In this document: positions 4,634 to 35,092 of the stretch, in pieces
How the letters are laid out: each line of letters starts with the position of its first letter
How positions within the stretch are numbered: the first letter of the stretch is position 1
Virus record (IMG/VR): IMGVR_UViG_3300021399_000145
Span: 1-64,000 of that record
Length of the DNA: 64,000 nt
Direction: 5' to 3' (one strand)
DNA from: a virus
The notes under the pieces: model-generated
Database searches by the model: none
Told to the model about the DNA's origin: nothing
Seen by the model: only the letters and a program-made list of their open reading frames with translations
Translations under genes and position numbers: made by a program

Positions 4634-5980
4634 TCAATTTTCGAATTTATCTTTAAGTTTTAAATATAATTCATATAATTCTTTACTTTTATCATCTAAA
4701 TTTGATTCTTTGTAGTCATCAAGAATAACTTGCGATGGTGTTGCAACGGAACTAATTCCATCTTTCGTTGCGTGTGTATATACGTTTTCTGTATTAATAG
4801 CTTTGTGTCCTACCTTTAGTGCCGTATTTACAATATTTGCATTCGCCTGACTATTAGCAATAGAGATGGCGGTATGTCTTAAAGAGTTGATTGATAAACC
4901 TTTCATTTGTCCTGTTTTTGTTAAATGCACATCTCTGTCTATACCCATCTTATCGCAAACCAAATTGAAGCCAACACGCATGGTTGCGTTACTTCTTCTC
5001 TTGCCATTTCGGAACGTGGGATATAGTAGGTCATCTTGATTGTTCAGACAGTGCAATCTAGTTTGTTCTTGCATATATTCTACACATTCTCGGCACAAAT
5101 CAGACATAACAATAAATCTACTTTCGCCATTCTTAGGTACTTTCACATACTCTTCAATACCGTTATTCTTGTCATTATTTATAAATCTTGTTGAACGTGT
5201 TTCAACAATGTTAATTATGTTCTGTTTAAGGTCAATATTACTATTTCGCAAAGATGCAAACTCGCTTTCTCGCATACCCGTTTCTAAAAGGAATAGTATT
5301 ACAACTGGATACTCGCTAATATTATGTTTGTAAGCGTAATAAAATTTTTGTATGTCCTCGGCGGTAAATACTTCTTTGCGATTTTTTAATTCTTGTTCGC
5401 GTTTGTAGTCGTACTCGTCTGCTACTTCTCGCGGTATTCTTGCAATTTTCGCGTAATTTTCATCTAACAAACTTATATTCGTAAGATATTCACAACACCT
5501 TCTGCATAGCTGAATAGGCAAAGAGCATGTCTTTCTTGATTTCTTTTCAAGAATTGTGTTGTAATAATTTTCAAATTCTACCGATGTAAGCATATGGAGC
5601 TGATAATTTGCAATCGGAAACTGATAGAAATTCACTTTCATGTTTGAACAATAAGTTAAATAGGCACTTTGAGTTATATTCGGCTTAATTTCGTTATCTA
5701 TAAACTCGCTCATATATTCGCCAAAGGTTTTTGTTTTCAAGAATTTTGAATCATTACCTTTTTCAAATTCTTTCTCCCATGCGCGTTTAGCCATCAGCGC
5801 ATTTTTTCTGGCTTCATCTTTTGTAGAACCAACTCTTTTTATTCTTTTTATTTTGCCAGTTTTGGGATTTAAATATTTAGCTGTCATAATACATTCATAT
5901 TTATTGTTATCAATTTTCCTTATACTACCCTCTCCGTTTTTAGCTTTATCTCTTGGCATTTCTTTTGTCTCCTTTATCAC
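4634..5980 (-). CDS. int: Tyrosine site-specific integrase with AP2-like N-terminal DNA-binding domain
   Basis: C-terminal catalytic signature LRHTAIS...HK...Y (R-HxxR-Y family). The N-terminal segment NGEGSIRK...KYE is typical of the integrase AP2/SAM-like arm-binding domain. Confidence 0.85.
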   Translation of the reverse strand: MIKETKEMPRDKAKNGEGSIRKIDNNKYECIMTAKYLNPKTGKIKRIKRVGSTKDEARKNALMAKRAWEKEFEKGNDSKFLKTKTFGEYMSEFIDNEIKPNITQSAYLTYCSNMKVNFYQFPIANYQLHMLTSVEFENYYNTILEKKSRKTCSLPIQLCRRCCEYLTNISLLDENYAKIARIPREVADEYDYKREQELKNRKEVFTAEDIQKFYYAYKHNISEYPVVILFLLETGMRESEFASLRNSNIDLKQNIINIVETRSTRFINNDKNNGIEEYVKVPKNGESRFIVMSDLCRECVEYMQEQTRLHCLNNQDDLLYPTFRNGKRRSNATMRVGFNLVCDKMGIDRDVHLTKTGQMKGLSINSLRHTAISIANSQANANIVNTALKVGHKAINTENVYTHATKDGISSVATPSQVILDDYKESNLDDKSKELYELYLKLKDKFEN

Positions 5981-6493: not shown

Positions 6494-7372
6494 TTAATCA
6501 CCCCCTTCTGTTTGCGTATCTGTTAATAATTTTTCTATATACCCTCGCCCTTCCTTTTTAAAGAGCGGAATATTTGAATCAATAAACCATTTGTTCCTAG
6601 TGAACGTATTACTGTCCGAATTGATTGGCGTACAAATTTGTAAAGATTTTATGCAACAACTACCGTAAATATTATATGGTTTATAATTTGATAAATCGTC
6701 ATTTTTTTCTTTAATCATTTTAATCATTTCTGATTTTGTTTTACCATATAATTCTTTATTGGAGTAGTATATTCTTGCAATCATATTTATTGAATTTCTG
6801 TATGCGTCCAATTGTCTCCAATAGAAATAATTTGTGACCTCTTCTTTTGGAATATTAAATACCCTACAATCAAATGTTGGATATCTTGAATCTATATAAC
6901 TCTCGTAGTTAAAATAATCTTTTGGAAGACTTGATAATAATTCTTTGTAACTTGAGCCAGACTGGAAAACTCTTTGTAGTTCATTTTCAATATGTTCTTC
7001 ATATTCATGAGCTACCTCTTCGAAATATTTATAAAATGAAATTGTTGCCATGCTCGAAATTACAGAACAAAGTTTTTGTATACGATAGCCAAAAAACGGG
7101 TCTGATTTTTCATTTAAATAATTTAAAAGTAGAAGTGATATCTCGTCTGATTGAGTGTAACCTAATACGCATTCTTGTATATTTTCGCAAAGATATTGCA
7201 TAGTTTTTCTCATTGTTTTAGATAACACTTCATCAAATGGTTTGTGGAATTTTTTTGCGAACGTATGAAAGCATCTACCGTCAACGCGTACAATAACTGG
7301 CTTGTCTGAATCCAGAGAAACATTAAATAGATGCTCATAAGCCTTCATTCTTTTATCAAATTCTGTATACAT
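6494..7372 (-). CDS. Thg1-like protein (tRNA-His guanylyltransferase family, 3'-5' nucleotidyltransferase)
   Basis: VIVRVDGRCFHTFAKKFHKPFDE and GYTQSDEISLL closely match the Thg1/TLP N-terminal catalytic motifs (VVRLDGRNFHRF...KPND and YGQSDEYSF). Confidence 0.75.
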   Translation of the reverse strand: MYTEFDKRMKAYEHLFNVSLDSDKPVIVRVDGRCFHTFAKKFHKPFDEVLSKTMRKTMQYLCENIQECVLGYTQSDEISLLLLNYLNEKSDPFFGYRIQKLCSVISSMATISFYKYFEEVAHEYEEHIENELQRVFQSGSSYKELLSSLPKDYFNYESYIDSRYPTFDCRVFNIPKEEVTNYFYWRQLDAYRNSINMIARIYYSNKELYGKTKSEMIKMIKEKNDDLSNYKPYNIYGSCCIKSLQICTPINSDSNTFTRNKWFIDSNIPLFKKEGRGYIEKLLTDTQTEGGD

Positions 7373-7605
7373 TAATTTTTCGCTTTCATTGAATTAAAAT
7401 ATTCTTCTATATATTCAGCCATCTTATCATCTTCTACATAAAACATATCTTCAATTCCCTTTTGAGAATATAGCCAACTAGAAAAATTAATTATAAGTTG
7501 ACCGAATCGCCAGTCTGGAATATAAAGTTTATGTAGCTCCGCAAGTCTTTCATAGAACGGTTGTAATCTGTTTGAATCTCTCAATCTTTCTAACCCCCTT
7601 TTCAT
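7372..7605 (-). CDS. Hypothetical protein
   Basis: ORF translationally coupled (ATGA overlap) to the Thg1-like gene, with a promoter-family motif upstream. Confidence 0.4.
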   Translation of the reverse strand: MKRGLERLRDSNRLQPFYERLAELHKLYIPDWRFGQLIINFSSWLYSQKGIEDMFYVEDDKMAEYIEEYFNSMKAKN

Positions 7606-7615
7606 TTTTATTGAG

Positions 7616-7644
7616 ATATTTTACTACTTATATGCTCCTTTGCC
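7616..7644 (-). promoter_or_regulatory. Promoter family copy (TTGGCA-N17-TAAAAT with conserved spacer GGAGCATATAAGTAG)
   Basis: Member of the conserved-spacer promoter family described in the findings. Confidence 0.45.
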
Positions 7645-7735
7645 AATAGTCAAATAAACGCATACATTATATGTAGATAATGGATTTTTCGCTAATTTTT
7701 CTTTTACATTTTTTTATTTTTTTAATATTTTTCCT

Positions 7736-8311
7736 TTAAAATTCACGTTTTATCGATTCTTTAAAATTTCGATATGTTTTATATTTTCTTTTCCATGATG
7801 ATTGAATGTCGCCCAAATTAAGTCCTAATTTATTTGTAACAAAATTTATGTATTCAAAATCATAAAGCTTTCTTCTACGTTTGTTTTTCTTTTTAATATC
7901 TTCAAATACTTCATCCTTTGAAATTTTGTATTTTGTTAATAAATAATTAGCCATATCTTTAGAAGAATACTCTTCGAATTGGCAAATAGGGCAGAATTCT
8001 TCTGGAACTTCACCGTAACACCATTCCGACAATATTTCATCAATCATGTCATCATTACTCATTTCAGAAAGTTCTTCTTCCGTTAATGGTTCAATAGATG
8101 AATAAGAGGACTCTATTTCTCGCATGAATTCTAACAATTTTTCTCGTGGTGGAGTTAACGCATGTTCATTACAAATAATATGACAATTTACACATTCAAA
8201 CATTTCTCCATCTTTTACTGAACAATCCCATCCAGAAATTTCATTACCACAAATATCACATACAAAACTTGATGAACTAGAATTGGTTACAAAATCTTTT
8301 CTGTATTTCAT
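7736..8311 (-). CDS. TNSSSSSF-motif family protein 1 with CxxC...CxxC zinc ribbon
   Basis: The N-terminus MKYRKDFVTNSSSSSFV is shared with two neighbouring paralogs. Four Cys lie in two CxxC pairs. Confidence 0.5.
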   Translation of the reverse strand: MKYRKDFVTNSSSSSFVCDICGNEISGWDCSVKDGEMFECVNCHIICNEHALTPPREKLLEFMREIESSYSSIEPLTEEELSEMSNDDMIDEILSEWCYGEVPEEFCPICQFEEYSSKDMANYLLTKYKISKDEVFEDIKKKNKRRRKLYDFEYINFVTNKLGLNLGDIQSSWKRKYKTYRNFKESIKREF

Positions 8312-9825: not shown

Positions 9826-10935
9826 TCATTTTAAACTCTTATCTTTCTTTTCGCATAACACAATTTCTCTTCTTATTGGACAACCACCCATACATTCTCT
9901 TCGCCTAGAACAGCCAGAGCATGAATTTCTAAAGTGATTTCTAAAATCTTCAAATACATCGCTATCCCATGCGTTCTGAATCGTATCATTTGATATATCA
10001 TAAGCCCACTTCAAGTCCTGATTATCAAAGCTACACGGTAATGCTTTCATGTCAGATGTGATATACATACTCCATCTACCGCCCTCACATGTATCATAGC
10101 TATCTGGATTTATTTTTGTAGTATAGTTGATAAGCGCGGGAACTGTACAACTATCAAATCCGATTTTAAAGTTATGGTCTACATTTTCAATAGCTTCAAA
10201 AAATCTCTTTACTCGCGGGTCATATTCGCATAATATATTTGCCTGTGTACCTAATCCGACTGGTTTATGAAGCAAAAAGATTACTGCGTTTATGCCATTC
10301 GGAAAATCGTTATTCTTAACTCTTTCGATTGCTTCATCAATAGAGTTATTACCAAGAACATAATGGATATTTGTTTTAACACCCGCGTCAAGTAACATCT
10401 GAATTGCTCTCAGTGTATGAGGTTGTCTATACCAACTGATTGCTACCGCGCCGCAATACTTTTTACAAATATCAACAATCTCCTTATTGAATCCAAGTCC
10501 AGATGATGTAAAGTTGGGAACAATATTGTTATCGCGGCAGTATTTAAGAATTTCTTCAAAATTTTCATGTTGGTCTACGTCACCTCGACCTCCGAGCGCA
10601 AATTGGTAACATTTTCCTTTACACTCGTCAACAATTCTTTTAAAATTCTCAAATGTCATGTTTGGATATTTTGTTTCGAGTCCGTTTTGATAGCACTGAA
10701 CGCCAGACTTTATACATAATCCGCTCCTGCCGTGTTTGCAAAAACCCATTACGCCAACGTCAATTAATTCTGGAAATGAAGACATGAATGGGTCTATACC
10801 AGTATCTACGCCGTTTTCTATAATTCCTGTTCTGGCGTAAAATCCTGTTTCAGTATCGAAGGTTGATATAAAATTATGTTTGGTATCTTTCTTTGTAATA
10901 ATCATAAAACCTTTATATTCTCCATTGTCTCGCAA
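9826..10935 (-). CDS. Radical-SAM-like TIM-barrel protein with C-terminal SPASM/twitch-like Cys cluster and a non-canonical N-terminal Cys triad
   Basis: C-terminal CSGCSRRRECMGGC resembles SPASM CxxCx5Cx3C. An LGGRGD GGE-like motif is present. The N-terminal cysteines are spaced Cx7Cx6C rather than CxxxCxxC. The start overlaps the PurA-like gene stop. Confidence 0.4.
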   Translation of the reverse strand: MRDNGEYKGFMIITKKDTKHNFISTFDTETGFYARTGIIENGVDTGIDPFMSSFPELIDVGVMGFCKHGRSGLCIKSGVQCYQNGLETKYPNMTFENFKRIVDECKGKCYQFALGGRGDVDQHENFEEILKYCRDNNIVPNFTSSGLGFNKEIVDICKKYCGAVAISWYRQPHTLRAIQMLLDAGVKTNIHYVLGNNSIDEAIERVKNNDFPNGINAVIFLLHKPVGLGTQANILCEYDPRVKRFFEAIENVDHNFKIGFDSCTVPALINYTTKINPDSYDTCEGGRWSMYITSDMKALPCSFDNQDLKWAYDISNDTIQNAWDSDVFEDFRNHFRNSCSGCSRRRECMGGCPIRREIVLCEKKDKSLK

Positions 10936-12065
10936 TTTGATAAATAAACATGGTCAATTAATCGTTCATTTTTAATATTTAATATATCTTTATCAGTGAT
11001 TGATACCTCATTATTATGTGTTATATATAAAGAGAAATATCTATTGGCATCATTTTTTATTCTTGTTAATAAATTGTTATAATCAAGATATCCATATCTT
11101 AATTTACCTTGGTGCGGGTTAGGTATATTTGTTTTGTCGTATTCTATATTACCTAAATTCTCTTTTTTACATTCAGTTTCAAACTGTCCCGCGCCATGCC
11201 TTGTCATATATGTTCTAGTTACATAATATGGTTCTACATAAAATTCGCCAGAAAAGGATTTTTCAAACTCTATTATATTATGCATTCCAGTGTAACTCGG
11301 TGTTGTGTGTACGTTGTTCTTATCTCTATTCAAAAGCAATCCCTGTCCATTCTCAAAAATTATCGAATCATAACGTCTTACAATTTCTGCGTCTGTTTCA
11401 ATTGTATTTTCGAGCATAAACGTCAAGTCGTCTAAAAAGTGAAATCTTATCTTGTAATCATTGATTATTGAGAACCATTCGACCAAAACTTTTTTAGATA
11501 TTGTTCCACTTCTACGATACCTATTTAAGTTATAGATAAATAGATTTTCGCGGACTTTCATTTCTTGCATTATCTTGTAAGTATCTGCACTTTTAAAATC
11601 TTTATAGTGCCAAATATTATTATCTCTGTATACCTTTTCCGTTTCCCATATACCTAACCCGCAACTACCATGTTTATTATCGCGACTTTGCTCTAACATT
11701 TGATTGAGAATCATTTCGTAAAATGTAGAAACTCTGCAACCTTTATCAATATAAACTTTTGGTTTAAACCCTAATCTTTCAAGTTCTTGAAATTCCTCTC
11801 GGAATATAATGGGATTTAGAATGAAATGTTCGGATAAGTATGTATCTGCTTTCCTAAATGTTCCGCTTCCAAAATGTCTAAAAGCATGGCGCGTTCCATC
11901 TTCTAAAACAACAGTATGGGAACGTTGCGCTCCGCCGTTATTGCAAATTACAAGACAATTACTATATTTATTCATGGCTTCATTCGCCAGAAAATCAGTA
12001 ACAAGACCTTTTCCTTCATCGCCATAATTAGCACCAATAACTGCTTTAGCTTCAATCGTTCCCAT
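10902..12065 (-). CDS. Adenylosuccinate-synthetase family protein (PurA-like; candidate PurZ of the 2-aminoadenine pathway)
   Basis: GDEGKG P-loop, GGAQRSHT, SCGLG, FENGQGLLLN and TRHGAGQF match the PurA motifs GDEGKGK, GGHNAGHT, GTTGRGIGP, FEGAQGTLLD and TRVGAGPF. Confidence 0.7.
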   Translation of the reverse strand: MGTIEAKAVIGANYGDEGKGLVTDFLANEAMNKYSNCLVICNNGGAQRSHTVVLEDGTRHAFRHFGSGTFRKADTYLSEHFILNPIIFREEFQELERLGFKPKVYIDKGCRVSTFYEMILNQMLEQSRDNKHGSCGLGIWETEKVYRDNNIWHYKDFKSADTYKIMQEMKVRENLFIYNLNRYRRSGTISKKVLVEWFSIINDYKIRFHFLDDLTFMLENTIETDAEIVRRYDSIIFENGQGLLLNRDKNNVHTTPSYTGMHNIIEFEKSFSGEFYVEPYYVTRTYMTRHGAGQFETECKKENLGNIEYDKTNIPNPHQGKLRYGYLDYNNLLTRIKNDANRYFSLYITHNNEVSITDKDILNIKNERLIDHVYLSNCETMENIKVL

Positions 12066-14891: not shown

Positions 14892-15139
14892 TACTTACTT
14901 TCTCCTTTTTCGTTGTTGTAAAGTTTAGATATATATGAATTAATTTCTTTCTCGATGGAATCTAAATCAAACTCTTCGTGATACACTTCTTCTTCTGGTG
15001 GTTCTTCGTCATTTAAAATGCGTGTGATTTTTTCTTTCTTATTAAATACGAAATCACCAATTATCCTAAAGAGTCCACTGAGCAGATACCATACGAGAAA
15101 TAAAATTAAACAAATAATTAGCCAAAAAACTATATTCAC
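14891..15139 (-). CDS. Small single-TM membrane protein coupled to the SPFH gene (NfeD-like partner?)
   Basis: Hydrophobic N-terminus, with an ATGA overlap to the downstream SPFH gene. Confidence 0.35.
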   Translation of the reverse strand: MNIVFWLIICLILFLVWYLLSGLFRIIGDFVFNKKEKITRILNDEEPPEEEVYHEEFDLDSIEKEINSYISKLYNNEKGESK

Positions 15140-15816
15140 TTTTTTACCTCTACCTCTAGCAAATGTGTTGCTTCCATATCGGCTTCATGTAGAGCCATCG
15201 CAAGCGGAAACTTTTCAAAGGCATTTCCTAATGAGTTCCAGATATTTTGTCCTTCATAAGCTCCCATGTGAAATCTAATTGCGACCGCTTCTTCATCTGT
15301 GAGTGTAATATATTTATTTACAAGATATACACTCTTATCACCATGTCCAAATGGAAACTGTTCATCAGCTTTATAATAAGGTACTGTTTCCCATATAAAG
15401 CTACCATTATTATCAGACTTAATCTGCCAACGTGCGGCGGCACTTACCTTTTCCTCATCATATGTTTTCTGATTTCTAAAGTCTACCGTGTAGAAATTCG
15501 CTTTGCAAACATCATGAAGTAAAGCGGCGAGAGCAAGTGATTCATCTGGCGTTTCAGATAAATATTTAACCCATAGCGGATTTTTCTTCTTTTTAACAAG
15601 ACAAGTGTAAACATTCAAACTGTGAGAGACAAGTCCGCCCTCGTAATCACAGTGGAATCTTGACGATGCGGGAGCTGTATAAAAATCAGTAGATTCAAGA
15701 TAATCGATTAATTTATCAATACCCTCACGCTTTGTATCTCTCAAAATCATATTGAAAATTTCATGATTTGATAAGTCCTCAGTTTCTTTAAGAAGTGGTT
15801 CGCTGTTCAAATTCAA
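15136..15816 (-). CDS. HD-domain phosphohydrolase (DatZ-like dNTP hydrolase candidate)
   Basis: H...H (RFHCDYEGGLVSHSL), HD (LLHDVCK) and a downstream D (HEADME) form the HD metal-binding signature. Confidence 0.55.
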   Translation of the reverse strand: MNLNSEPLLKETEDLSNHEIFNMILRDTKREGIDKLIDYLESTDFYTAPASSRFHCDYEGGLVSHSLNVYTCLVKKKKNPLWVKYLSETPDESLALAALLHDVCKANFYTVDFRNQKTYDEEKVSAAARWQIKSDNNGSFIWETVPYYKADEQFPFGHGDKSVYLVNKYITLTDEEAVAIRFHMGAYEGQNIWNSLGNAFEKFPLAMALHEADMEATHLLEVEVKK

Positions 15817-17029: not shown

Positions 17030-17674
17030 TTAAGTGAAATCGCAAACCTTGATTTTTGTAATAATTCTGTTGTGCTGTCTATCATAAAGGTCTATTATTG
17101 GCTTACCGACTACACCTTCCATTTCGTGATTCGGGTTAATAAGTGAACAAGGGCGAGTCTTAATAAATTCAACAGCTTCCTTAATCGTTCCAGTCATAAC
17201 CAATGGTACGATTTTAATACCGAATGCTTTTGCAATATCCTGAATGTCCCGATATTTAAGCCAAGTATCTGAGCCAACCATATACACATCGAACAAGATA
17301 AAATCACAGCCATCAGGAATGTAATTACCGCCGCCTTTCTGGATTTTCGCGCCGTAACCTTCGCCAAAGAGAACCACTTCTTTCTCGCCAAACAGTTGTT
17401 CAAACATTTCTTCGGCTTCGTTCGTGCCAAAAATCTCAATTAATCTATTCATTAGATGCGCGGGAATCTGCGCTCTTTCTGTTCTGCCCTGATAGTTTAC
17501 TTTGTGTCCATCCCAGTATATACCCGTATTTGCTCCGTCGCATTTTTCGCTAAAAAACCAGAGATTATCAGACAAAAATTTAATAGCTTCGTTTCTATAC
17601 TCTCCCTCAATGAGTTTCTTACTTCCTTCCATGTCTCTGACAAATGGCGTTTCAATTTTGGTATATTTATACAT
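17030..17674 (-). CDS. ATP-dependent RNA-ligase-like nucleotidyltransferase (KxDG family)
   Basis: Motif I EKCDGAN (KxDGxN) with a downstream FGEGYG (motif IV-like) and a KIK motif. Its 214 aa size fits the minimal Rnl-type ligases. Confidence 0.5.
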   Translation of the reverse strand: MYKYTKIETPFVRDMEGSKKLIEGEYRNEAIKFLSDNLWFFSEKCDGANTGIYWDGHKVNYQGRTERAQIPAHLMNRLIEIFGTNEAEEMFEQLFGEKEVVLFGEGYGAKIQKGGGNYIPDGCDFILFDVYMVGSDTWLKYRDIQDIAKAFGIKIVPLVMTGTIKEAVEFIKTRPCSLINPNHEMEGVVGKPIIDLYDRQHNRIITKIKVCDFT

Positions 17675-17700: not shown

Positions 17701-17729
17701 ATTATACTACTTATATTCTCTTTTGTCAA
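17701..17729 (-). promoter_or_regulatory. Promoter family copy (TTGACA-AAAGAGAATATAAGTAG-TATAAT)
   Basis: A perfect sigma70 consensus with a 17-nt spacer, 25 nt upstream of an RBS and the ligase ATG. Confidence 0.65.
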
Positions 17730-19280: not shown

Positions 19281-19613
19281 TTATACTCCTTTTTCTTTAA
19301 TCATTTTGTACCCACAATGCGGACAATAATCACTCAATACTGTCTTATGTCTTAGCCAATCTCTCATTGCCCATCCGTCACAATTAGAACAGTAATAATG
19401 TCCAAAATGTTCTGGCGGCATCATACCTTTAGCCTTAACCCAATAAGCTGTTTCGCAATTTATATTTTTATTTAAAGGTTTAATCATTTCATCTTTTGCT
19501 GTTGGTATTTTTCGTATTTCTTGTACTTTTTGACAATTATAATTACAGTCCCATCTATCACAAAATGAACAGATTAAACTTATTACATTATCTTCATTAA
19601 TTAATCTTCCCAA
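19281..19613 (-). CDS. Zinc-ribbon array member (CxxC...CSNCDGW...CPHCGYKM)
   Basis: Cys pairs with the CPHCG terminal ribbon shared with the downstream paralogs. Confidence 0.45.
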   Translation of the reverse strand: MGRLINEDNVISLICSFCDRWDCNYNCQKVQEIRKIPTAKDEMIKPLNKNINCETAYWVKAKGMMPPEHFGHYYCSNCDGWAMRDWLRHKTVLSDYCPHCGYKMIKEKGV

Positions 19614-19881
19614 TTGTTAATCCTTTCATATTAGAACCGCAATGTCTGCAATAATTATCATAATTATCTAAGTCATAAACATCTTTAAAATATCGACCAC
19701 AGTTTGAACATCGCGCTTCATCGCCCCACTTGCGAATAATCCAAATAGCGGTCTTTTGTTCTTGTTGTACTGGTGGTAAAGCTTTTACGGCATCAACAGC
19801 GCAGTCTAACCATGCATTAGGTTTTTCGTGTAATTCATTTATTGTATCTATAACAACTTGTTTATTAATTAATTCAACCAT
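19597..19881 (-). CDS. Zinc-ribbon array member (ALPPVQQE ... CSNCG ... CRHCGSNM)
   Basis: Shares the LPxxQxE linker and the terminal C-x-x-CG ribbon with the array. Confidence 0.45.
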   Translation of the reverse strand: MVELINKQVVIDTINELHEKPNAWLDCAVDAVKALPPVQQEQKTAIWIIRKWGDEARCSNCGRYFKDVYDLDNYDNYCRHCGSNMKGLTIGKIN

Positions 19882-19888
19882 CGTTACA

Positions 19889-20128
19889 TCATTCCATCTT
19901 TGCCCCGCAGTTTGGGCAGAAGTCTGTTATCTCTCCGTTCTTCGGCTCAGACTTACACTCAGAGCAGTAAGGATAGTAGCCATCAGAGCTGATAATCCAG
20001 TGCGGTCGATTACGATTAGGCTGTACCTCACGGTTCAGCGGCGCAATCATCTGTTCGTACTCTCCAAGTGTGATATCTCCATTATCAAGCTTGCGGTCTG
20101 CGTCTCTTATCAGGTCAAGATATGTCAT
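19889..20128 (-). CDS. Zinc-ribbon array member (CSEC...CPNCGAKM)
   Basis: Terminal CPNCGA-K/D-M motif. Confidence 0.45.
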   Translation of the reverse strand: MTYLDLIRDADRKLDNGDITLGEYEQMIAPLNREVQPNRNRPHWIISSDGYYPYCSECKSEPKNGEITDFCPNCGAKME

Positions 20129-20352
20129 TCATTCTCACCTCCACGATACGACTCTGGTTCTTCTCGATTGCATATTTCCAAAAAATCCTCTTTTGACTTT
20201 TCTTCAATTTCTTTTTGGATGCCTTTGTCTGACAGTTCGTGAGTGAATACTGGTCTGCCGAGTTTTTTCTGGATATATTTATGAACATCATCAAAGTCGC
20301 ACATCAATACTCCAGTGTATGCTGATACTATTATCTTTTCTCGCTTAGTCAT
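20125..20352 (-). CDS. Small hypothetical protein within the array
   Basis: ORF with overlapping stops/starts. It lacks the ribbon. Confidence 0.3.
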   Translation of the reverse strand: MTKREKIIVSAYTGVLMCDFDDVHKYIQKKLGRPVFTHELSDKGIQKEIEEKSKEDFLEICNREEPESYRGGENE

Positions 20353-20659
20353 TTTCCGTACCTCTCATATCCGCTCCGCAGTTCGGACAGAACTTCAAAT
20401 CATCTACCGTAAACCCTATATCGCACCATCTGTACGCATCCACCGTAAATCTCTGTTTGCAATTAGAACACATAATGTCATCATATTTTTCAGTGTCAGA
20501 ATCAAGGTCTATCCACTCGCCCTTCGGACGTTCTGGTTGTGCGGGTGGCAATGCTATTATTTTACTCGCATACCAATCAGGATAGTGTGCATCGGGATAT
20601 TCTCCCATAATCGCATCAATCGCCGCCTGTCTGTTTATAGTGTCATTCATCCTGTTCAT
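20345..20659 (-). CDS. Zinc-ribbon array member (RQAAIDAI ... ALPPAQPERPKGEW ... CSNC ... CPNCGADMR)
   Basis: Full family architecture. Confidence 0.5.
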   Translation of the reverse strand: MNRMNDTINRQAAIDAIMGEYPDAHYPDWYASKIIALPPAQPERPKGEWIDLDSDTEKYDDIMCSNCKQRFTVDAYRWCDIGFTVDDLKFCPNCGADMRGTEND

Positions 20660-20831
20660 TCCTTTCTATCGGACATATTGGTAACAACCATTTTACCAAC
20701 GTGTCGCATCCATCAATCTGAACACTTAGTTTATTACATACATATGTCCAATCATCGATAGACATATCCCACGCTTGTAAATACGGGCAGTCAATAGGGC
20801 AATCAATCGGAAATTGAATCATTTTGTTCAC
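20643..20831 (-). CDS. Small Cys-rich protein within the array
   Basis: CPIDCP..C..C..C. Confidence 0.3.
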   Translation of the reverse strand: MNKMIQFPIDCPIDCPYLQAWDMSIDDWTYVCNKLSVQIDGCDTLVKWLLPICPIERNEQDE

Positions 20832-21084
20832 CTATCATATCTGCTCCGCACATCGGGCAAGTATCGAACGCATAGCTTCGTCCTTCTCCACAACTCGGAC
20901 ACTCGTACCTGACTATCCACCGTCCCATCTTGTGTTTTGGCTGTACAGATGGCAATTCCATAATCTCATCTTCGAACACGTCACTTGGAATGCCGTAATT
21001 CGCAGTCCAATAATCTGTTGACATATCCTGCGTGTATTTGTCTATGAGGTCAATAACCGCAGAACGTTCAATTAAATCGTTCAT
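20803..21084 (-). CDS. Zinc-ribbon array member (MNDLIERSAVIDLI ... LPSVQPKHKMGRW ... CPSCG ... CPMCGADM)
   Basis: Full family architecture. Confidence 0.5.
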   Translation of the reverse strand: MNDLIERSAVIDLIDKYTQDMSTDYWTANYGIPSDVFEDEIMELPSVQPKHKMGRWIVRYECPSCGEGRSYAFDTCPMCGADMIGEQNDSISD

Positions 21085-21406
21085 CCTGTTCTCTTCTCAT
21101 ATCTGCTCCGCAGTTCGGGCAAAACGCTGTTTGATGCTTACCAACACCATATCCACACTCAGAACAATACCACGGCATCCAACCTAATAATTGTCCGTTA
21201 TGTTTTGCTCGTTCCTCTTCTTCGTTTATATGTTTCCAATACCCTTTCTTTCGTTCTGGCTGTGCGGATGGAATGGCGATTACAATGCTTTTTGCAATGT
21301 CCATTATATTGACCATATCATTCTCAAAGCCAAAACAATAAATCAACTTTCTCTGCCGTTCGTTGATTTCATTAATTACCGTCTGTCTGCTTATCAAATC
21401 ATTCAT
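21068..21406 (-). CDS. Zinc-ribbon array member (MNDLISRQTVINEI ... IPSAQPERKKGYW ... CSECG ... CPNCGADMR)
   Basis: Full family architecture. Confidence 0.5.
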   Translation of the reverse strand: MNDLISRQTVINEINERQRKLIYCFGFENDMVNIMDIAKSIVIAIPSAQPERKKGYWKHINEEEERAKHNGQLLGWMPWYCSECGYGVGKHQTAFCPNCGADMRREQDERFN

Positions 21407-21737
21407 CCTCTATACATCTCATATCTGCCCCGCAGTTCGGGCAGAAATTATATAATGGCTGTCCATCTTCCACCCGATAACCGCAAGCATCACAAAACCA
21501 ATAGTCATACGTTACATATACCAAAGTTGCCCCAATGTATTCACAGCTTTTTTCTCTATGCGGTGTCCACCTTCCCCTCATCCTATTTGGCTGTGCAGAT
21601 GGTAGTTCTTCCAATGCATCACGGATAAACCGCTCTCGCTCTTTACTGAATCCGCCGTCCCAATCGTCAGCCGCTTCTATTGCCGCATCAATCGCCGCCT
21701 GTCTGGAAATTAAATCATCCTCTTTTTCACCTCTCAT
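21399..21737 (-). CDS. Zinc-ribbon array member (DLISRQAAIDAAI ... LPSAQPNRMRGRW ... CDACG ... CPNCGADMR)
   Basis: Full family architecture. Confidence 0.5.
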   Translation of the reverse strand: MRGEKEDDLISRQAAIDAAIEAADDWDGGFSKERERFIRDALEELPSAQPNRMRGRWTPHREKSCEYIGATLVYVTYDYWFCDACGYRVEDGQPLYNFCPNCGADMRCIEDE

Positions 21738-22023
21738 ATCGAATATCTCCGTGTTTGATAATGCTACGAATCATCCAATCGTAACCACAGAATCCTTTTG
21801 ACTTCCTCTCTAGTTTTCTAGCCTCATTAGCCGACATTCGTGTGGTTGTAACGCAAGCAGTCCAACCGTCATCCCAACTGTGGTAGAATGACTTATTCCA
21901 ATACTCTTTTGGTACATCGCATTCTCTGCGTGTTCGCACAAACAACTGTCCTTCTTGAGACCATTTACTATTCCACGAGCCTTTATTCGGCATTGATAAT
22001 TTAAACACTATCATCCTGTTCAC
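21727..22023 (-). CDS. Hypothetical protein interrupting the array (Trp-rich, no ribbon)
   Basis: ORF track. It is distinct from its neighbours. Confidence 0.35.
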   Translation of the reverse strand: MNRMIVFKLSMPNKGSWNSKWSQEGQLFVRTRRECDVPKEYWNKSFYHSWDDGWTACVTTTRMSANEARKLERKSKGFCGYDWMIRSIIKHGDIRYER

Positions 22024-22504
22024 CTCTCCATTTCTTCACCATTACGGAAATATGTGCCGCCGCCAGATTTGCGAATTCATTATCGAGACTTTTTAGCCAC
22101 TCGATATGTTCCTTAATCCACGATAGCGAAATTGACGGTTCGGGTTGTGAAATAACAACATCTGGATTCTGATATTCGCAAGGGCTTCCGAGATAACACG
22201 GCGTCTCTGACTGTGCGGATGGCACTCTTTGTAATATATAAACTTCCTCGCACCAATTATCTCCTTTTTGGATTGTTGAACAAGTTTCTGGTTTGTCAAC
22301 TGTACATTTAGAACATAATGTATTAATAGCGGTCTGTCTGCTGATTATGTCACCGACATTTGTGTCGGTCGCAACGGGCTGTGCGGATTCAAGCATATCC
22401 TTTATTTCGGTTAATGCTTGTTCATAATGCCACAAATCACTGTGTTCTGCCTTGCCAATATCAGCTGAGATATTGATTAACCAATTAACGGCTTCTCTGT
22501 TATC
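22001..22504 (-). CDS. Divergent array member (DIISRQTAINTLCSKC ... RVPSAQSE); start reassigned to MDNREAV
   Basis: Carries the family helix and the PSAQ linker, with a different Cys arrangement. Confidence 0.4.
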   Translation of the reverse strand, partial: DNREAVNWLINISADIGKAEHSDLWHYEQALTEIKDMLESAQPVATDTNVGDIISRQTAINTLCSKCTVDKPETCSTIQKGDNWCEEVYILQRVPSAQSETPCYLGSPCEYQNPDVVISQPEPSISLSWIKEHIEWLKSLDNEFANLAAAHISVMVKKWRGEQDDSV

Positions 22505-22820
22505 CATCGGTTCTCCTTTCCGCAAGACCACAATAAAAATCATCTTTGACCGTGACTCCAAAAATTGTAGCCCACGCATTTGCCACGCAATTCTTCGTTC
22601 CTTTGTGCTTGCAGTCCTTACATTTGATTATCTCTGGCTGTTTGCGTCTTTCCTTCAGCTCTCTCAGCCATTCCGCAAATTGTTTGTATTCATTTGCACT
22701 TTTATACAATTTTTGTGAATGGAGGGCAGAATTATCTGCCATGCCCTCATAAGTATTTGCTACTTCCTCGAACTGTTCGATAGTTTCTTCAAGTGTCATC
22801 ATCTGTTCTCCTTTCTGCAT
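22500..22820 (-). CDS. CKDCKH / DDFYCGxAERRTD small protein, paralog A (start uncertain)
   Basis: The C-terminal half is near-identical in pattern to the 22789-23124 product. Confidence 0.4.
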   Translation of the reverse strand: MQKGEQMMTLEETIEQFEEVANTYEGMADNSALHSQKLYKSANEYKQFAEWLRELKERRKQPEIIKCKDCKHKGTKNCVANAWATIFGVTVKDDFYCGLAERRTDG

Positions 22821-23124
22821 ATCCGCAGTAAAAATCATCGTCTGTATCGATGTGCGACACATCGTATGTTTCTCCGTATAGTGAACGCCACATATCATCA
22901 CTTTCGCAAAACCCAAACGACAACAGAACACCTTTATAATTGGTCTGTTGCTTCCAGTGCTTGCAGTCCTTGCACAGAATTATCTCTGGCTGTTCCAATG
23001 CTTCGATTGCCATTTCGAGAGCTTCCACAATGTTGTCATCTTCAACCTTCATGGTAATGTTCGCATAGTCCACGAATGAGTCTAGGATTGGTTTTAGAAT
23101 TTTAATTGCTTCTTCTCTGCTCAT
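22789..23124 (-). CDS. CKDCKH / DDFYCGxAERRTD small protein, paralog B
   Basis: PEIILCKDCKHW ... DDFYCGYAERRTD matches paralog A. Confidence 0.45.
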   Translation of the reverse strand: MSREEAIKILKPILDSFVDYANITMKVEDDNIVEALEMAIEALEQPEIILCKDCKHWKQQTNYKGVLLSFGFCESDDMWRSLYGETYDVSHIDTDDDFYCGYAERRTDDDT

Positions 23125-23408
23125 TCGTTCATCATCCCCAAGCTATCTCTGAACACATCCAATATCATTTTTGCCCTGTCAATATCTGGATAGCGCACAT
23201 CGGGTGTTGGGTGTGTCAGAATCCGCCACGCTTCGTCATACTCAAACTTTGCAGACTTGAGGATTTTCAGCCATGCGAGCATATACCTGCATTTCTCTGC
23301 ACTTTCGAGATAATACGCCTTTACCGTAGGATACACACTTGTCTCAGCAAGCTCCTTGTTCATTCTTTCGGAATTTTCGTATTGCTCAATCGCCTGCTCA
23401 ATCGTCAT
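23121..23408 (-). CDS. Hypothetical protein
   Basis: ORF track. Confidence 0.35.
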   Translation of the reverse strand: MTIEQAIEQYENSERMNKELAETSVYPTVKAYYLESAEKCRYMLAWLKILKSAKFEYDEAWRILTHPTPDVRYPDIDRAKMILDVFRDSLGMMNE

Positions 23409-23590: not shown

Positions 23591-23800
23591 TTATCCTCTC
23601 CTATCCTTTTTTTCGTTAAGTAATTCACAAAACCAGTTATAAAATATTTGCAAAGATTCTGTTAATTCATATTCAGTAACATAGACTGGACACGTACCAT
23701 CACAGCATCCATGACTCTTACAGTAGGGTTCTTTGTCGTTACGACATGTCAGTTCTTTTTCGATATTGGCTATTGCTTCTTCTCTGGTCATCCATCCCAT
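23591..23800 (-). CDS. Small Cys-rich protein (CxxxxxxCxxxxCCxxxC)
   Basis: ORF track; 7 Cys in 69 aa. Confidence 0.35.
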   Translation of the reverse strand: MGWMTREEAIANIEKELTCRNDKEPYCKSHGCCDGTCPVYVTEYELTESLQIFYNWFCELLNEKKDRRG

Positions 23801-23967
23801 TCATCCTCATCCTCTATCTTTTTGTCAAGCCAGTCAGTAAAGCCGATACGTCCTGAATGACAGTATTCTCTCGCAACGCATATAAAGCAATCCGTTTTAA
23901 GTTCCGCACAAAGCAGGTTTGCAAGCTCTTCCTTCGTGCAAGACTGGATGTATTCCATGTTTGTCAT
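23788..23967 (-). CDS. Small Cys-containing protein (about 59 aa), manually translated
   Basis: MTNMEYIQSCTKEELANLLCAELKTDCFICVAREYCHSG... The stop overlaps the next ATG (ATGGGATGGATGA). Confidence 0.25.
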   Translation of the reverse strand: MTNMEYIQSCTKEELANLLCAELKTDCFICVAREYCHSGRIGFTDWLDKKIEDEDEWDG

Positions 23968-24106: not shown

Positions 24107-24466
24107 TCATTCGTCATCACATTCTTCCGCTTCGATTACTGTTGGTATTTTTGCTATGTACGGCATAACTCCAAGCAAATCAATATCTCCATGCTTTTTG
24201 ATAAATTCTTTGTGTGTTCGAAGCGTCTGTAACCTTTCGTGTATTGCATCAATGACATTATCCTCGTCTATCAGCCGACCATGCGGAGTAGGCACTTCGA
24301 CAAGCGTACACCAGTCAGGTCTTTCGTCATCAAGCCCAAGACCAGTTCCTCTGTATGCACAAAAAGGAGTATCATCATGATTGCAGAAAAAACAAAATTT
24401 TGTTTTTCCATTTTCTTCGTATATACAGTTTATTGGCATTTCCATATCCTTAATCAACACACTCAT
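24107..24466 (-). CDS. Hypothetical protein
   Basis: ORF track. Confidence 0.35.
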   Translation of the reverse strand: MSVLIKDMEMPINCIYEENGKTKFCFFCNHDDTPFCAYRGTGLGLDDERPDWCTLVEVPTPHGRLIDEDNVIDAIHERLQTLRTHKEFIKKHGDIDLLGVMPYIAKIPTVIEAEECDDE

Positions 24467-27315: not shown

Positions 27316-27344
27316 ATTATATACTACTCACATTCTCCTGTCAA
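27316..27344 (-). promoter_or_regulatory. Promoter family copy (TTGACA-GGAGAATGTGAGTAGTA-TATAAT)
   Basis: A perfect -35 and -10 with a 17-nt conserved spacer. Confidence 0.65.
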
Positions 27345-31291: not shown

Positions 31292-31433
31292 TCCCTAAAA
31301 CCCTATCATTCAACTGCGCATTATAGTTACCTGTACAGGTTGGTTATTTTGCCTACTTAGACCTTTCACGGATTCGCACCGCACCTCTTCTCACCAGACC
31401 TCAACCACCGAGCGGGAATCGAACCCGCCTTCG

Positions 31434-31508
31434 TTGTGAGTTCGGGACTCGAACCCGAAACCTTTGGTTTATAAGACCACTGCGCTCACCTAGTTGCGCC
31501 AACTCACA
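31434..31508 (-). tRNA. tRNA, probable anticodon UAU (Ile, AUA decoder); 75 nt
   Basis: Folded manually: acceptor TGTGAGT/ACTCACA 7 bp, D-stem GCGC/GCGC, T-arm TCGGG-TTCGAGT-CCCGA, anticodon loop CTTATAA. The anticodon stem has a G:A mismatch at position 27:43. Confidence 0.55.
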
Positions 31509-31513
31509 ATAAG

Positions 31514-31585
31514 CAGGGGTAGTTGGATTCGAACCAACGAATACAGCAGTCAAAGTGCTGTGCCTTACCGCTTGGCGATACCCCT
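31514..31585 (-). tRNA. tRNA-Gln (anticodon UUG); 72 nt
   Basis: Acceptor AGGGGTA/TACCCCT, T-arm GTTGG-TTCGAAT-CCAAC, anticodon stem CAGCA/TGCTG with loop CTTTGAC. Confidence 0.7.
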
Positions 31586-31700
31586 AATTTTATTATACTG
31601 TGCCTTTCGCAATAAATGATTTCGTGACGCATCACTACTTTCCACACTTCCGTAAAAGCTGTCTTTCACCGTCAATCCGTAAATTTCGGAGGGCATTTAT

Positions 31701-32498
31701 TTATTCTTCTACCAATTTGATAAATTTTGCTGTACCACTATTTAAATCTTCGAAAGATTCAAATTTTCTTCCGTCCGTCGGTCGTGTATCTCCATCATCA
31801 TCTATGAGTTTGCCGTCGGAAATTTCATAAATCTTTCCAAGTGTGTATCCTTCGCCTTCTTTTGTGCAAACAACCTTCATATTAAACTTTTTATTGTGAA
31901 TCTCTTTATCCTTTGATTCAGTGTATAAATCGAAGCAATTGCAATCTACCCACCAGTAATCACAACAATCATCTTCTTTATACACCTTCATTTCACATTT
32001 GAATTCTGGTGTCGTTCTAATACTTATTTCTGAAACAACACCAATCCAACCTTTATTTGTTATAGCGTAATGATTCTTGTCATTACCTATAACTTTATCT
32101 CCAACAGTGAATCCTAAAACAAGGCGACTGAAAGCGATGATTGCACCAGTTTTAAAATCATACTTATCCTTTGTGTTACACCTTACTGTACACTTTTCAT
32201 TTGTGTTTTTATTAAGAGCGGTGACAACGCGTTCATCACTGTAAATTACAATAGATTCCTTCTTAAGCTCTTTACTCATAGCACGTTCATCCCAAGTCCA
32301 ATGATCCCCATTCTTTAATTTAATACAGTAACCATTTGAAATATTATCTATACCAGTAATCTCCGCCATTTCTCCAACATAATCTTCCATTGGAGAGTAT
32401 GGAATCCAACCGCCCGCAAAATTTGGAATTTTAGAACCATTAAGTAAATATACATTATCACCAACTTTAAACTTACCAGTAAACTTTTCTTCTTTCAT
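31701..32498 (-). CDS. Hypothetical protein with internal repeats (start reassigned to MKEEKF to avoid the tRNA-like element)
   Basis: The N-terminal 29 codons of the ORF-track ORF read through the tRNA-like element. The internal ATG lies just downstream of it. Confidence 0.4.
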   Translation of the reverse strand: MKEEKFTGKFKVGDNVYLLNGSKIPNFAGGWIPYSPMEDYVGEMAEITGIDNISNGYCIKLKNGDHWTWDERAMSKELKKESIVIYSDERVVTALNKNTNEKCTVRCNTKDKYDFKTGAIIAFSRLVLGFTVGDKVIGNDKNHYAITNKGWIGVVSEISIRTTPEFKCEMKVYKEDDCCDYWWVDCNCFDLYTESKDKEIHNKKFNMKVVCTKEGEGYTLGKIYEISDGKLIDDDGDTRPTDGRKFESFEDLNSGTAKFIKLVEE

Positions 32499-32529
32499 TT
32501 TAAAACCCTTTTTATTATTTTTAAATATT

Positions 32530-32605
32530 GGGGCGGCGGGACTCGAACCCGCACCACGGAACTGTCTTACCGCGCTCTTCCACACTGGTTAAGCTACACC
32601 CCTTA
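32530..32605 (-). pseudogene. Degenerate tRNA-like element (canonical T-arm and acceptor 3' strand, non-canonical anticodon arm)
   Basis: GTGCGGG-TTCGAGT-CCCGC-CGCCCCA at the 3' side and GGGGTG-TA-GCTT... at the 5' side fold as tRNA. The middle gives only a 16-nt arm with a 6-nt loop. This may be a pseudo-tRNA or may reflect a sequence error. Confidence 0.3.
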
Positions 32606-32890
32606 CTGGCGACCCCCTTGTACTTCGGGAATACTTTAATGCTCATTAACACACCAGTCTTATATACGTTTGCGAATATCACCATTCATATCTCACAATA
32701 AATCAACCGTTTCGAACCAGTTGAAACGCATACGTTTTCGCAAGTCTCACGCACGAAGCATTATCAGTTTGCGCGAAGATAATGCTATATTAACTTGCGA
32801 AACGCTACCGAAACATTTGAAGTTTCTTTAATCACAGCCTTTCGCCGTAGTAGCGCGGAGGGCAATTTGTCAACAAACAAAATTACCGAA

Positions 32891-32973
32891 TGCGGGTAGT
32901 GGGATTCGAACCCACACGGTATATAACCAAAGGATTTTAAGTCCTTTGCGTCTGCCAGTTCCACCATACCCGC
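32891..32973 (-). tRNA. tRNA-Leu (anticodon UAA), type II with long variable arm; 83 nt
   Basis: Acceptor GCGGGTA/TACCCGC, anticodon stem AAGGA/TCCTT with loop CTTAAAA, variable stem GGT-TATAT-ACC, T-arm GTGGG-TTCGAAT-CCCAC. Confidence 0.7.
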
Positions 32974-34510: not shown

Positions 34511-35092
34511 TCATTCATTTAATAACTCTTTTTTCACAGTCTCGATACTTTTGAGCGGCAAACAAGACATTTCTTCAACAATTCTATCTGTATTATAATC
34601 ATGTTTTAAAAATCTATATGTTATATTTTCCAACTGTTTTAAGGTATCGCCGTAAATAACTTTATACATTTTTTGGTTTGTATTTTTATTATTAAGTCCG
34701 CCGCGAGACTCTATATAACTTCCGATTTTAATATAATCAATGCAAACGTTATCATAAAATATACTAAATTTAGATATATTACAACTACCACTATATATAC
34801 AAACTTTATATCCGCGCTTCTTTACAATTTTGCATAAATTTAATAATTCATTTAAGTTTTGGTCGCCACCCATAAAGCATACACAAGTGATAAGCGAGTT
34901 ATATTTATCTATTAGTTTATCCAAATCATCAGAAATATAATTACCTGTATATTCCCAAAGATATTTTGAGTGGCAACCCTTACATTTGTAAGGGCAACCA
35001 CTTATATTAATAGCAAGAGAAATTTCATCTGGTACTTCTTCGCAAACTATAGCATAGCTAACATATTTAAGTTTCTGTTTCTGCATTATCAC
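34511..35092 (-). CDS. nrdG: Anaerobic ribonucleotide reductase activating protein (radical SAM)
   Basis: CPYKCKGC is a CxxxCxxC radical-SAM motif. It lies immediately downstream of nrdD and overlaps it by 26 nt. Confidence 0.7.
   Translation of the reverse strand: MIMQKQKLKYVSYAIVCEEVPDEISLAINISGCPYKCKGCHSKYLWEYTGNYISDDLDKLIDKYNSLITCVCFMGGDQNLNELLNLCKIVKKRGYKVCIYSGSCNISKFSIFYDNVCIDYIKIGSYIESRGGLNNKNTNQKMYKVIYGDTLKQLENITYRFLKHDYNTDRIVEEMSCLPLKSIETVKKELLNE

Follow-up and report, generated by a model that had tools for sequence, protein, structure and literature searches.

We analysed a tandem array of small genes at positions 19281-23124 of a 64,000-nucleotide (nt) stretch of phage DNA (IMG/VR virus record IMGVR_UViG_3300021399_000145, positions 1 to 64,000; this whole stretch is referred to below as the window). 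The interval is filled by 13 tightly packed minus-strand genes, in which neighbours either overlap at stop and start by 4-17 nt (8 nt at 21399/21406, 17 nt at 21068/21084; further overlaps at 20345/20352, 20125/20128 and 19597/19613) or are separated by gaps of 7-8 nt. The co-oriented run of small open reading frames (ORFs) with overlapping stops and starts that a preliminary description had reported is real, and so is the tandemly repeated family within it, seven ORFs sharing the full architecture; the '12 or more' zinc-ribbon paralogs counted there come down to these seven. Besides them, the interval holds three modular genes with other C-terminal domains (22001-23124) and three unrelated genes, i.e. 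the locus is a set of seven ribbon paralogs within a ten-gene modular block. Two short protein motifs of the shared N-terminal module (M1, DLISRQAAIDA, and M2, PSAQPE) are conserved as nucleotides, synonymous positions included, and the homology blocks common to phage contigs begin or end mostly at these two motifs; sequence comparison suggests that recombination with an external gene pool has put the array together and reshuffled it.

A family profile was built from 55 sequences, including the seven window ORFs, and retrieved in the 64-kb window the seven members at E-values of 1e-16 to 3e-39 and no further full member. All are encoded on the minus strand. Member 1 (21399-21737, 112 aa, E 4e-32) displays, in order, DDLISRQAAIDA, a helical hairpin, an LPSAQPN linker, RGRW, a long beta hairpin and CDAC...CPNCGADM; its protein is identical to one (P0001) present on 6 contigs. 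Member 2 (21068-21406, 112 aa, E 3e-39) contains a perfect copy of the M2 joint. Member 3 (20803-21084, 93 aa, with CPSCG...CPMCGADM) and member 4 (20345-20659, 104 aa, with an ortholog in the related phage L007) were recognised by both alignment and profile. Member 5 (19889-20128, 79 aa, E 1e-16) has the ribbon CSECK...CPNCGAKME, member 6 (19597-19881, 94 aa) the ribbon CSNCG...CRHCGSNM, a low GC content at third codon positions (GC3, 0.22) and orthologs in both L007 and a second related phage, L006, and member 7 (19281-19613, 110 aa) is a chimera of two adjacent L006 genes. The conserved N-terminal motif and CPNCGA ribbon initially ascribed to the array hold for part of it: the former is degenerate in the genes starting at 19889, 19597 and 19281, and the latter occurs in four of the seven members.

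The N-module is a two-helix hairpin with conserved ends (xDLISRQAAIDA and LPSAQPE) around a hypervariable middle of 16-89 residues, and its own profile matched six of the seven ribbon genes at E 1e-13 to 1e-25 and 19889-20128 at E 1e-5. The AlphaFold2 (AF2) model of 21399-21737 (mean confidence score, pLDDT, of 79) placed helices at residues 12-25 and 32-44 and, behind a linker, a long beta hairpin (57-82) that leads into the zinc knuckles. All four Cys, one Gly and one Met are invariant in the seven-member alignment, the Cys residues (C81, C84, C96 and C99) also across the 55 family sequences. With two CxxC-type knuckles on beta hairpins and four conserved Cys, the proteins are, as judged from their sequences, of the zinc-ribbon structural class, and zinc binding is predicted.

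The family had been described as uncharacterised, and this was borne out. None of the seven members reached the gathering thresholds of the Pfam zinc-ribbon families PF13240, PF13248 and PF12773; the best scores were 21.7 against 27 bits (PF13248, 20345-20659) and 20.6 against 25 bits (PF13240, 21399-21737), and the matches were limited to the Cys knuckles. PHROGs, NCBIfam, PADLOC and a sequence-profile search of the PDB returned only generic zinc-ribbon matches below threshold, and a database search with the family profile, which had been proposed as a check, brought up no well-characterised family with a defined function. The generic ribbon families and the Lar family (PF14354, phrog_6422) have the CxxC...CxxC knuckles in common with the array, CPNCGA being typical of PF13240-like ribbons, but the scores lie under the curated cut-offs and functional inference is not transferable; Lar itself gave no Pfam match and a PHROG match at E 0.0055 in one member, over the ribbon only. 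The PADLOC model PDC-M14A, which appears to be a two-module relative, weakly matched 20345-20659 (E 7.6e-5) and 19597-19881 (E 0.0094) and no other member. An Ead_Ea22/coiled-coil signature and DUF551 were absent from the window genes in Pfam searches, DUF551 being confined to relatives on other contigs. A DksA/TraR-type regulator was rejected: zf-dskA_traR was absent from the Pfam matches at E up to 1, and the hairpin, which in such regulators has a conserved acidic tip, varies more in its interior than the rest of the protein. Two family members carry the precomputed Pfam accession PF27353, which may correspond to the N-module family. Fold searches returned nothing below E 0.4 in the PDB and, in BFVD, only gut-phage relatives that were without annotation or automatically named. 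The names of database members are uninformative ('hypothetical protein' or 'rubrerythrin' only), a database search for fusion partners with the N-module alone retrieved only short proteins lacking Pfam annotation, and a literature search found no mention of the motif strings, PF27353, DUF7736 or PDC-M14. One N-module profile match, P0134 (2,552 aa, 18 stretches), was discarded as an unrelated repetitive protein.

We considered whether these proteins could be nucleic-acid-binding regulators, i.e. zinc-ribbon transcription or translation factors for phage or host genes. Weak ribbon matches to TFIIB, RNA-polymerase-subunit and ribosomal zinc ribbons, the basic ERKKGxW patch ahead of the ribbon and the basic to near-neutral isoelectric points (pI) of two members (8.4 and 6.3) would agree with this, but most members are acidic (family median pI 5.0, net charge -5), the ribbon matches cover the Cys knuckles only and stay below family thresholds, and such extreme loop and core variability is unusual for factors with a conserved nucleic-acid target. 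We regard a regulatory function as unlikely.

The three other modular genes, also on the minus strand, have no ribbon. The gene at 22001-22507 (168 aa; start codon taken from the gene call on the metagenome stretch L001), formerly listed as an array member, does carry a type-1 N-module (DIISRQTAIN...VPSAQSE, E 8e-8), but in place of the ribbon it has a helical domain (SWIKEHIEWLKSL...), which is also found in L006 (4764-5036) and L007 (5669-6121). The gene at 22500-22799 (99 aa) joins a helical N part (TLEETIEQFE...WLRELKERR) to CKDCKH...FYCGLAERRTDG and includes repeat families D6 and D7, and that at 22789-23124 (111 aa, 294 relatives) joins a type-2 helical hairpin (REEAIKIL...AIEALEQPE) to CKDCKH...FYCGYAERRTD; AF2 modelled this hairpin with a pLDDT of about 90, and its CKDCKH domain, below 50, was not confidently modelled. 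The pair, with its signature CKDCKH...FYCGxAERRTD, had been noticed before and taken as separate from the array; it exists, but the separation did not hold, as the domain follows DLISRQAAIDA...LPSAQPE modules in other contigs. The CKDCKH domain is moreover 83-91 % identical across many proteins with differing N parts, and the 22500-23124 pair therefore belongs to the same modular system. In the window, the C-terminal domain is thus a zinc ribbon with variable loops in seven genes, the Cys-rich CKDCKH domain in two and helical in one; family-wide, the domains that follow the N-module are a zinc ribbon, a DUF551-like domain (QRWIPCSERLPE...AWMPLPEPY), CKDCKH...FYCGYAERRTD and a helical SWIEEHIEWL domain (other contigs). 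Single proteins may contain 2-5 N-module copies, and stand-alone N-module ORFs occur as well. A 184-aa database relative, P0363, consists of a Lar-type ribbon (PF14354), a type-1 N-module and a CKDCKH domain, in this order, and no other relative ties the family to a named function.

The acidic tails RGEQDE and ERRTDG, each running directly into the stop codon, share purine-rich nucleotides with the ribosome-binding region and ATG of the next gene. Unrelated C domains end alike because both functions use the same nucleotides, so that some of what looks like conservation of the proteins reflects a signal at the gene junction. The junctions 21399-21406 and 21068-21084 are examples in which the tail-coding sequence doubles as the start signal of the following gene.

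In order to assess codon usage in M1 and M2, a degenerate, unbiased scan of IMG/VR was used, which gave at least 132 instances of DLISRQAAIDA in 116 viral contigs and 96 of PSAQPE. M1 is nearly always encoded as GAT TTA ATC AGC AGA CAG GCG GCG ATT GAT GCG, and M2, in the same loci, as CCA TCC GCA CAG CCA GAA. For M1, the Ser codon is AGC in 122/132 instances (background frequency in the same ORFs 0.26), the Ala codon GCG in 124/132 (0.26) and the Leu codon TTA in 100/132 (0.16); for M2, Ser is TCC in 88 of 96 (0.10) and Ala is GCA in 95 of 96 (0.49). The ribbon peptide CPNCGA, by contrast, is written with mixed codons even inside the same ORFs. Both conserved blocks are sharp-edged, conservation falling to zero directly outside, and the variable cores between M1 and M2 differ in length and sequence (62 clusters among 83 cores). 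An effect of translation initiation on the M1 codons was ruled out because M1 copies inside proteins carry the same codons as N-terminal ones. Pairing between M1 and M2 in the RNA was likewise rejected (4.4 cross pairs against 4.1 in shuffles, z = -0.17), and no Rfam family reached its gathering score.

In the window itself, two M1-like and five M2-like sites are found, all on the minus strand. The perfect M2 copy (CCATCCGCACAGCCAGAA, encoding PSAQPE with the codons fixed across contigs) lies at 21254-21271, and degenerate copies at 20531-20548, 20935-20952, 21585-21602 and 22205-22222; the PSAQPE-coding 18-mer has 5 matches at no more than 3 mismatches, against 0.02 expected. The M1 joint (ISRQAAID; consensus ATCAGCAGACAGGCGGCGATTGAT; repeat family D3) lies at 21687-21710, with a second copy at 20615-20638 and weaker ones inside 21370-21409 and 22321-22360.

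This conservation at the DNA level also bears on a reading modelled on the T4 internal-protein loci with their capsid-targeting sequence, in which the N-module would be a targeting or pro-peptide, LPSAQPE a protease site, and the C domains anti-defence effectors that are packaged into the virion and injected. In its favour, highly diverse small domains of a plastic locus are preceded by a conserved N-terminal motif and a conserved short linker. Against it, the motifs are conserved as DNA, the module is a folded hairpin of 40-50 aa with a variable core instead of a short signal, it occurs 2-5 times per protein or on its own, and the genes neighbour replication and nucleotide-metabolism genes, not head genes. 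We consider it extremely improbable.

The window was then compared with related sequences. It is 100 % identical, over the 10.8 kb compared, to L001, a stretch from a 93.6-kb metagenome contig. The flanks of the array are colinear in L007 (about 95 % identical) and in L006 (about 76-82 %), whereas the array is mosaic, and copy number and membership vary between related phages, as the preliminary description had suggested examining. The N core of member 1 (21705-21589, from the ISRQ to the PSAQP codons) corresponds at 98.3 % to L007 5872-5988, where it precedes a helical C domain instead of a ribbon; the N core of member 3 (21103-20934) matches L007 at 95.9 % and is there joined to the ribbon of member 1; and the ribbon half of member 2 (21271-21070, starting at PSAQPE) matches, at 90.8 % identity, the C half of an L006 gene that has a different N part. 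In the gene at 19281-19613, nt 1-120 correspond to L006 7269-7388 (91.7 %) and nt 124-333 to L006 7640-7849 (93.8 %). Relative to the two adjacent L006 genes (7269-7849), an indel of about 250 nt fuses or splits this gene in frame.

Synonymous divergence (dS) of the array genes shared with L006 is 0.08-0.12, against 1.36 for the flanking RNA ligase gene, and the array genes have therefore been exchanged recently. The ratio of nonsynonymous to synonymous divergence (dN/dS) ranges from 0.05 to 0.64 among orthologs (member 4, 20345-20659, 0.31 and member 5, 19889-20128, 0.05, both against L007), so that the proteins evolve under purifying selection and not through a race of point mutations. The segment 19889-23408 has a GC content of 42.7 % (GC3 0.33-0.53), compared with 35.0 % in the rest of the window and a median of 47 % in typical carriers, which points to import from a higher-GC gene pool.

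These comparisons speak against the origin first proposed for the array, in which one ancestral gene was duplicated in tandem and the copies diverged fast by point mutation under diversifying selection. The members are indeed adjacent and co-oriented with one architecture, and two orthologous pairs have somewhat raised dN/dS (0.64 and 0.31). Every orthologous ratio is nonetheless below 1, and diversification therefore looks like cassette shuffling instead of duplication followed by fast point mutation. Tandem Repeats Finder detected no gene-sized DNA repeat, paralogs resembling each other in DNA only at motif blocks (direct repeats of 17-54 nt at 60-88 % identity); GC3 spans 0.20 to 0.53 among the members; and related phages differ by gene fusion and whole-cassette swaps at 91-98 % DNA identity, not by scattered substitutions. 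The label 'tandemly duplicated and rapidly diverging' was not supported, and we hold the duplication model to be very unlikely.

We also weighed the view that a selfish or recombinogenic DNA repeat gives rise to the ORFs as by-products without function, or else that they encode precursors of RiPP-like (ribosomally synthesised and post-translationally modified) peptides. It could account for motif conservation at the DNA level, truncated stand-alone N-modules and Cys-rich C-terminal parts. It sits badly, however, with dN/dS below 1, with four Cys that are invariant though their codons vary freely and with a fold confidently predicted by AF2; no gene for a modifying enzyme lies next to the array, and the single radical-SAM gene (34511-35092) probably encodes the NrdD activase. 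We find this view highly improbable.

Exchange at the motifs was quantified by a block analysis of 199 sequences (198 loci and part of the window). Among 182 internal homology blocks, 131 ended no more than 15 nt from M1 or M2, of which 27 spanned precisely M1 to M2 and 24 M2 to M1. When a wider selection of blocks (60-1500 nt) was taken, 50 % of ends lay within 15 nt of a motif, compared with 18 % in shifted controls. Such a pattern might suggest that a dedicated sequence-specific machinery (a site-specific recombinase, nuclease-primed gene conversion or a similar device) recognises M1 and M2 and exchanges cassettes in frame, as in integrons, shufflons or pilin mini-cassettes. Synonymous sites that are near-invariant over 18-33 nt with very sharp edges in more than 100 contigs, cassettes bounded exactly by the motifs and the two tyrosine-recombinase genes of the window (4634-5980 and 49929-50657) are in line with it. 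Yet no recombinase gene adjoins the array here or is among its common neighbours elsewhere, no reverse transcriptase figures among the listed Pfam matches of the window, neither motif is the inverted repeat of the other, nor do the two pair in RNA, some breakpoints lie outside the motifs, and general recombination by a Sak-type protein suffices for the pattern. We judge dedicated machinery to be quite unlikely. A diversity-generating retroelement was rejected as well: the best 25 of the 34 Pfam families matched by the 65 window ORFs of at least 100 aa include no reverse transcriptase, and there is no template/variable pair of about 100 nt differing at adenines, the longest direct repeats being those of 17-54 nt described above.

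The genome is that of a large uncultured Bacillota phage of about 35 % GC, in which nearly all genes are on the minus strand from about 4.6 kb on. The window starts with holin and endolysin-type genes and encodes a DnaE-type polymerase, which shares only 38 % identity with its counterparts in large Clostridioides and Bacillus phages, as well as DnaB, primase, NrdD, ThyX, dUTPase, an RNA ligase (17030-17674) and three tRNAs (31433-32973); the radical-SAM gene mentioned above is directly downstream of the NrdD gene. As candidate enzymes for recombination at short joints, it encodes a Sak-type (Rad52-like) single-strand annealing protein (47671-48396, minus strand; PF06378, E 2e-29) and a PD-(D/E)XK nuclease (44001-44777). 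Upstream of the array, a perfect sigma-70 consensus (TTGACA-17-TATAAT) at 27316-27344 on the minus strand is likely the promoter of the unit that contains the array, a prediction made from the consensus match only. The best minus-strand promoter match inside the array scores 10/12, the minus-strand terminator-like sites are all below usual strength, and promoter-like and terminator-like counts in the array equal those of shuffled sequence. The sigma-70 consensus, with no convincing terminator before the array, suggests early expression. A second perfect 12/12 sigma-70 consensus lies at 17701-17729 (minus strand) and, with that at 27316-27344, brackets about 9.6 kb including the array.

Our favoured explanation, for which, taken as a whole, belief and doubt are about evenly balanced, is that of a cassette-built early accessory block whose joints are used by homologous recombination via Sak and the nuclease and whose products are host-takeover or anti-defence binders. 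The block would consist of early-region accessory genes made of interchangeable in-frame cassettes, with M1 and M2 serving as short homologous-recombination joints on which the phage's own annealing protein and nuclease probably act. N cores and C domains would be swapped, fused, deleted or duplicated in frame, both among paralogs and among co-infecting phages, such that combinatorial diversity could arise without rapid point mutation, and frequent exchange would itself keep the joints homogeneous. Rad52-like recombinases are reported to drive phage mosaicism via relaxed homologous recombination (PMC3945230, PMC5499656). The products would be small, mostly acidic, zinc-stabilised proteins, probably made early from the strong upstream promoter, and their most likely role would be to bind and inhibit or redirect host or competitor proteins (host takeover or anti-defence). 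Target specificity would come from the variable hairpin core and the ribbon loops, and oligomerisation or a common docking surface from the conserved hairpin base. We favour small zinc-stabilised binders or inhibitors because of the early promoter context, the neighbour genes and the acidic composition. The host-takeover or anti-defence role put forward at the outset fits the likely early-operon position, the acidic composition and the orphan-methylase and Lar-like neighbours of the family, and is unproven.

Several points weigh against this explanation. The window has one perfect M2 copy and no perfect M1, the other copies being degenerate, and the codon data come mostly from rumen and gut metagenomes, among the matches listed in the scan. 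The join in 19281-19613 falls at IPTAK/DEMIKPL, outside both motifs. Homology between type-1 and type-2 N-modules reached an hhalign probability of only 6.6 %, and the two are treated as positional equivalents for this reason. The promoter at 27344-27316 rests on a consensus match, acidity and early position are only weakly diagnostic of protein function, and the binder or inhibitor role is a putative one drawn from context. Finally, fixed codons could in principle reflect a dedicated sequence-specific mechanism or some other role of the DNA or RNA.

Beyond this genome, the full profile matched at least 6,568 clusters (90 % identity) at E no greater than 1e-3 among 8,000 scored candidates, and the N-module alone gave 3,220 representatives at 50 % identity. 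In species-representative genomes, the family is found mostly in metagenome-assembled genomes of rumen and gut Lachnospiraceae, Oscillospiraceae and other Clostridia, where it is often clustered, with up to 7 profile matches per locus. It is essentially absent from 50,697 GenBank phage records: neither the locus DNA nor the protein of 21399-21737 had a match among GenBank phages, M1 DNA gave partial chance matches only, and a canonical family member had one weak match, in an uncultured faecal phage. Common neighbours of the family in other phages are genes for dUTPase, MazZ-like and Lar-like proteins, primase and methylases (orphan methylases).

Several known phage systems resemble the array in part. 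The Ea22/exo-xis genes of lambda and Shiga toxin (Stx) phages (PMC10834534) are likewise early accessory genes with a common helical N part and portable C domains, one of which, DUF551, has a counterpart in the DUF551-like domain that relatives of the array's N-module carry. The two groups showed no relationship in sequence, however, and the N part is a long coiled coil there and a short hairpin with a hypervariable core here; tandem arrays, multi-module proteins, Bacillota hosts and, in the window, ribbon, CKDCKH and helical C domains further set the array apart. In gp38 and tail fibres of the T4 superfamily, strictly conserved short motifs also separate hypervariable segments, and recombination within or beside these motifs yields chimeras from a population-wide library (PMC3157838), but these are virion receptor-binding proteins whose motifs form a structural core, and fixation of synonymous codons is not part of their evidence. 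PeSL cassettes (PMC2839356, PMC4122927) have short repeated DNA motifs that flank small novel ORFs and mediate modular shuffling; they are, however, intergenic promoter and stem-loop units in T4-type hyperplastic regions, whereas the joints of the array are in-frame coding sequence. Membership among PeSLs was rejected, the array genes overlapping or lying 7-8 nt apart with no recurring promoter/terminator pattern. The locus belongs to none of these three systems, in-frame coding joints with fixed synonymous sites setting it apart; it is a variant of the modular shuffling already known in phages, in small early proteins of uncultured Bacillota phages.

The three unrelated minus-strand genes interspersed in the array are a DUF7736 gene (20125-20352, 75 aa, E 1e-18), a Cys-rich gene (20643-20822, 59 aa) and a gene without family match (21727-22023, 98 aa). 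The last is 97 % identical at the amino acid level in L007 (dN/dS 0.36) and is therefore a stable resident amid shuffling neighbours. Antisense plus-strand ORFs of 145-170 aa cross the array at 19730-20242, 20315-20761 and 21191-21628 and probably arise only because the sense strand is rich in GAN codons. Upstream of the array, small minus-strand genes at 23121-23408, 23591-23800, 23788-23967 and 24107-24466 have similar helical starts (TIEQAIEQYE, TREEAIANIE, RLIDEDNVIDAI) or are Cys-rich, and 24107-24466 gave a marginal N-module match (E 4e-4); the modular block may extend to about 24.5 kb.

Elsewhere in the window, an adenylosuccinate-synthetase homolog (phrog_1211, E 1e-53; Adenylsucc_synt, E 3e-31) occurs near an HD phosphohydrolase (10902-12065 and 15136-15816, respectively, both on the minus strand), a pairing that recalls PurZ/DatZ of phages substituting 2-aminoadenine for adenine. 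Pfam matches among ORFs of at least 100 aa also included a Thg1-like tRNA-His guanylyltransferase, a GmrSD_N domain protein, an ERCC4 nuclease and an SPFH/Band 7 protein, which together with the RNA ligase and the tRNAs suggest a tRNA-repair or anti-defence toolkit.

A large share of the genes of gut and rumen phages are small early ones that resist interpretation, and the present family, seemingly missing from cultured phages, is among the larger such groups. M1 and M2 provide a simple sequence handle for finding and cataloguing its cassettes in metagenomes and, fixed as joints, would offer a concrete, testable mechanism by which accessory-protein diversity arises without hypermutation. A stronger form of the idea, which we hold to be doubtful, is that evolvability maintains M1 (about 33 nt) and M2 (about 18-21 nt) as functional signals in the DNA. 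They would be in-frame recombination joints, possibly read by a specific factor, of a community-wide cassette-exchange system from which combinatorial diversity in early phage proteins arises; if true, Bacillota phages of the rumen and gut would have, within coding sequence, an analogue of integron or pilin mini-cassettes. Should the proteins turn out to inhibit host defence or the machinery of the host, the arrays would amount to existing libraries of small binders stabilised by zinc.

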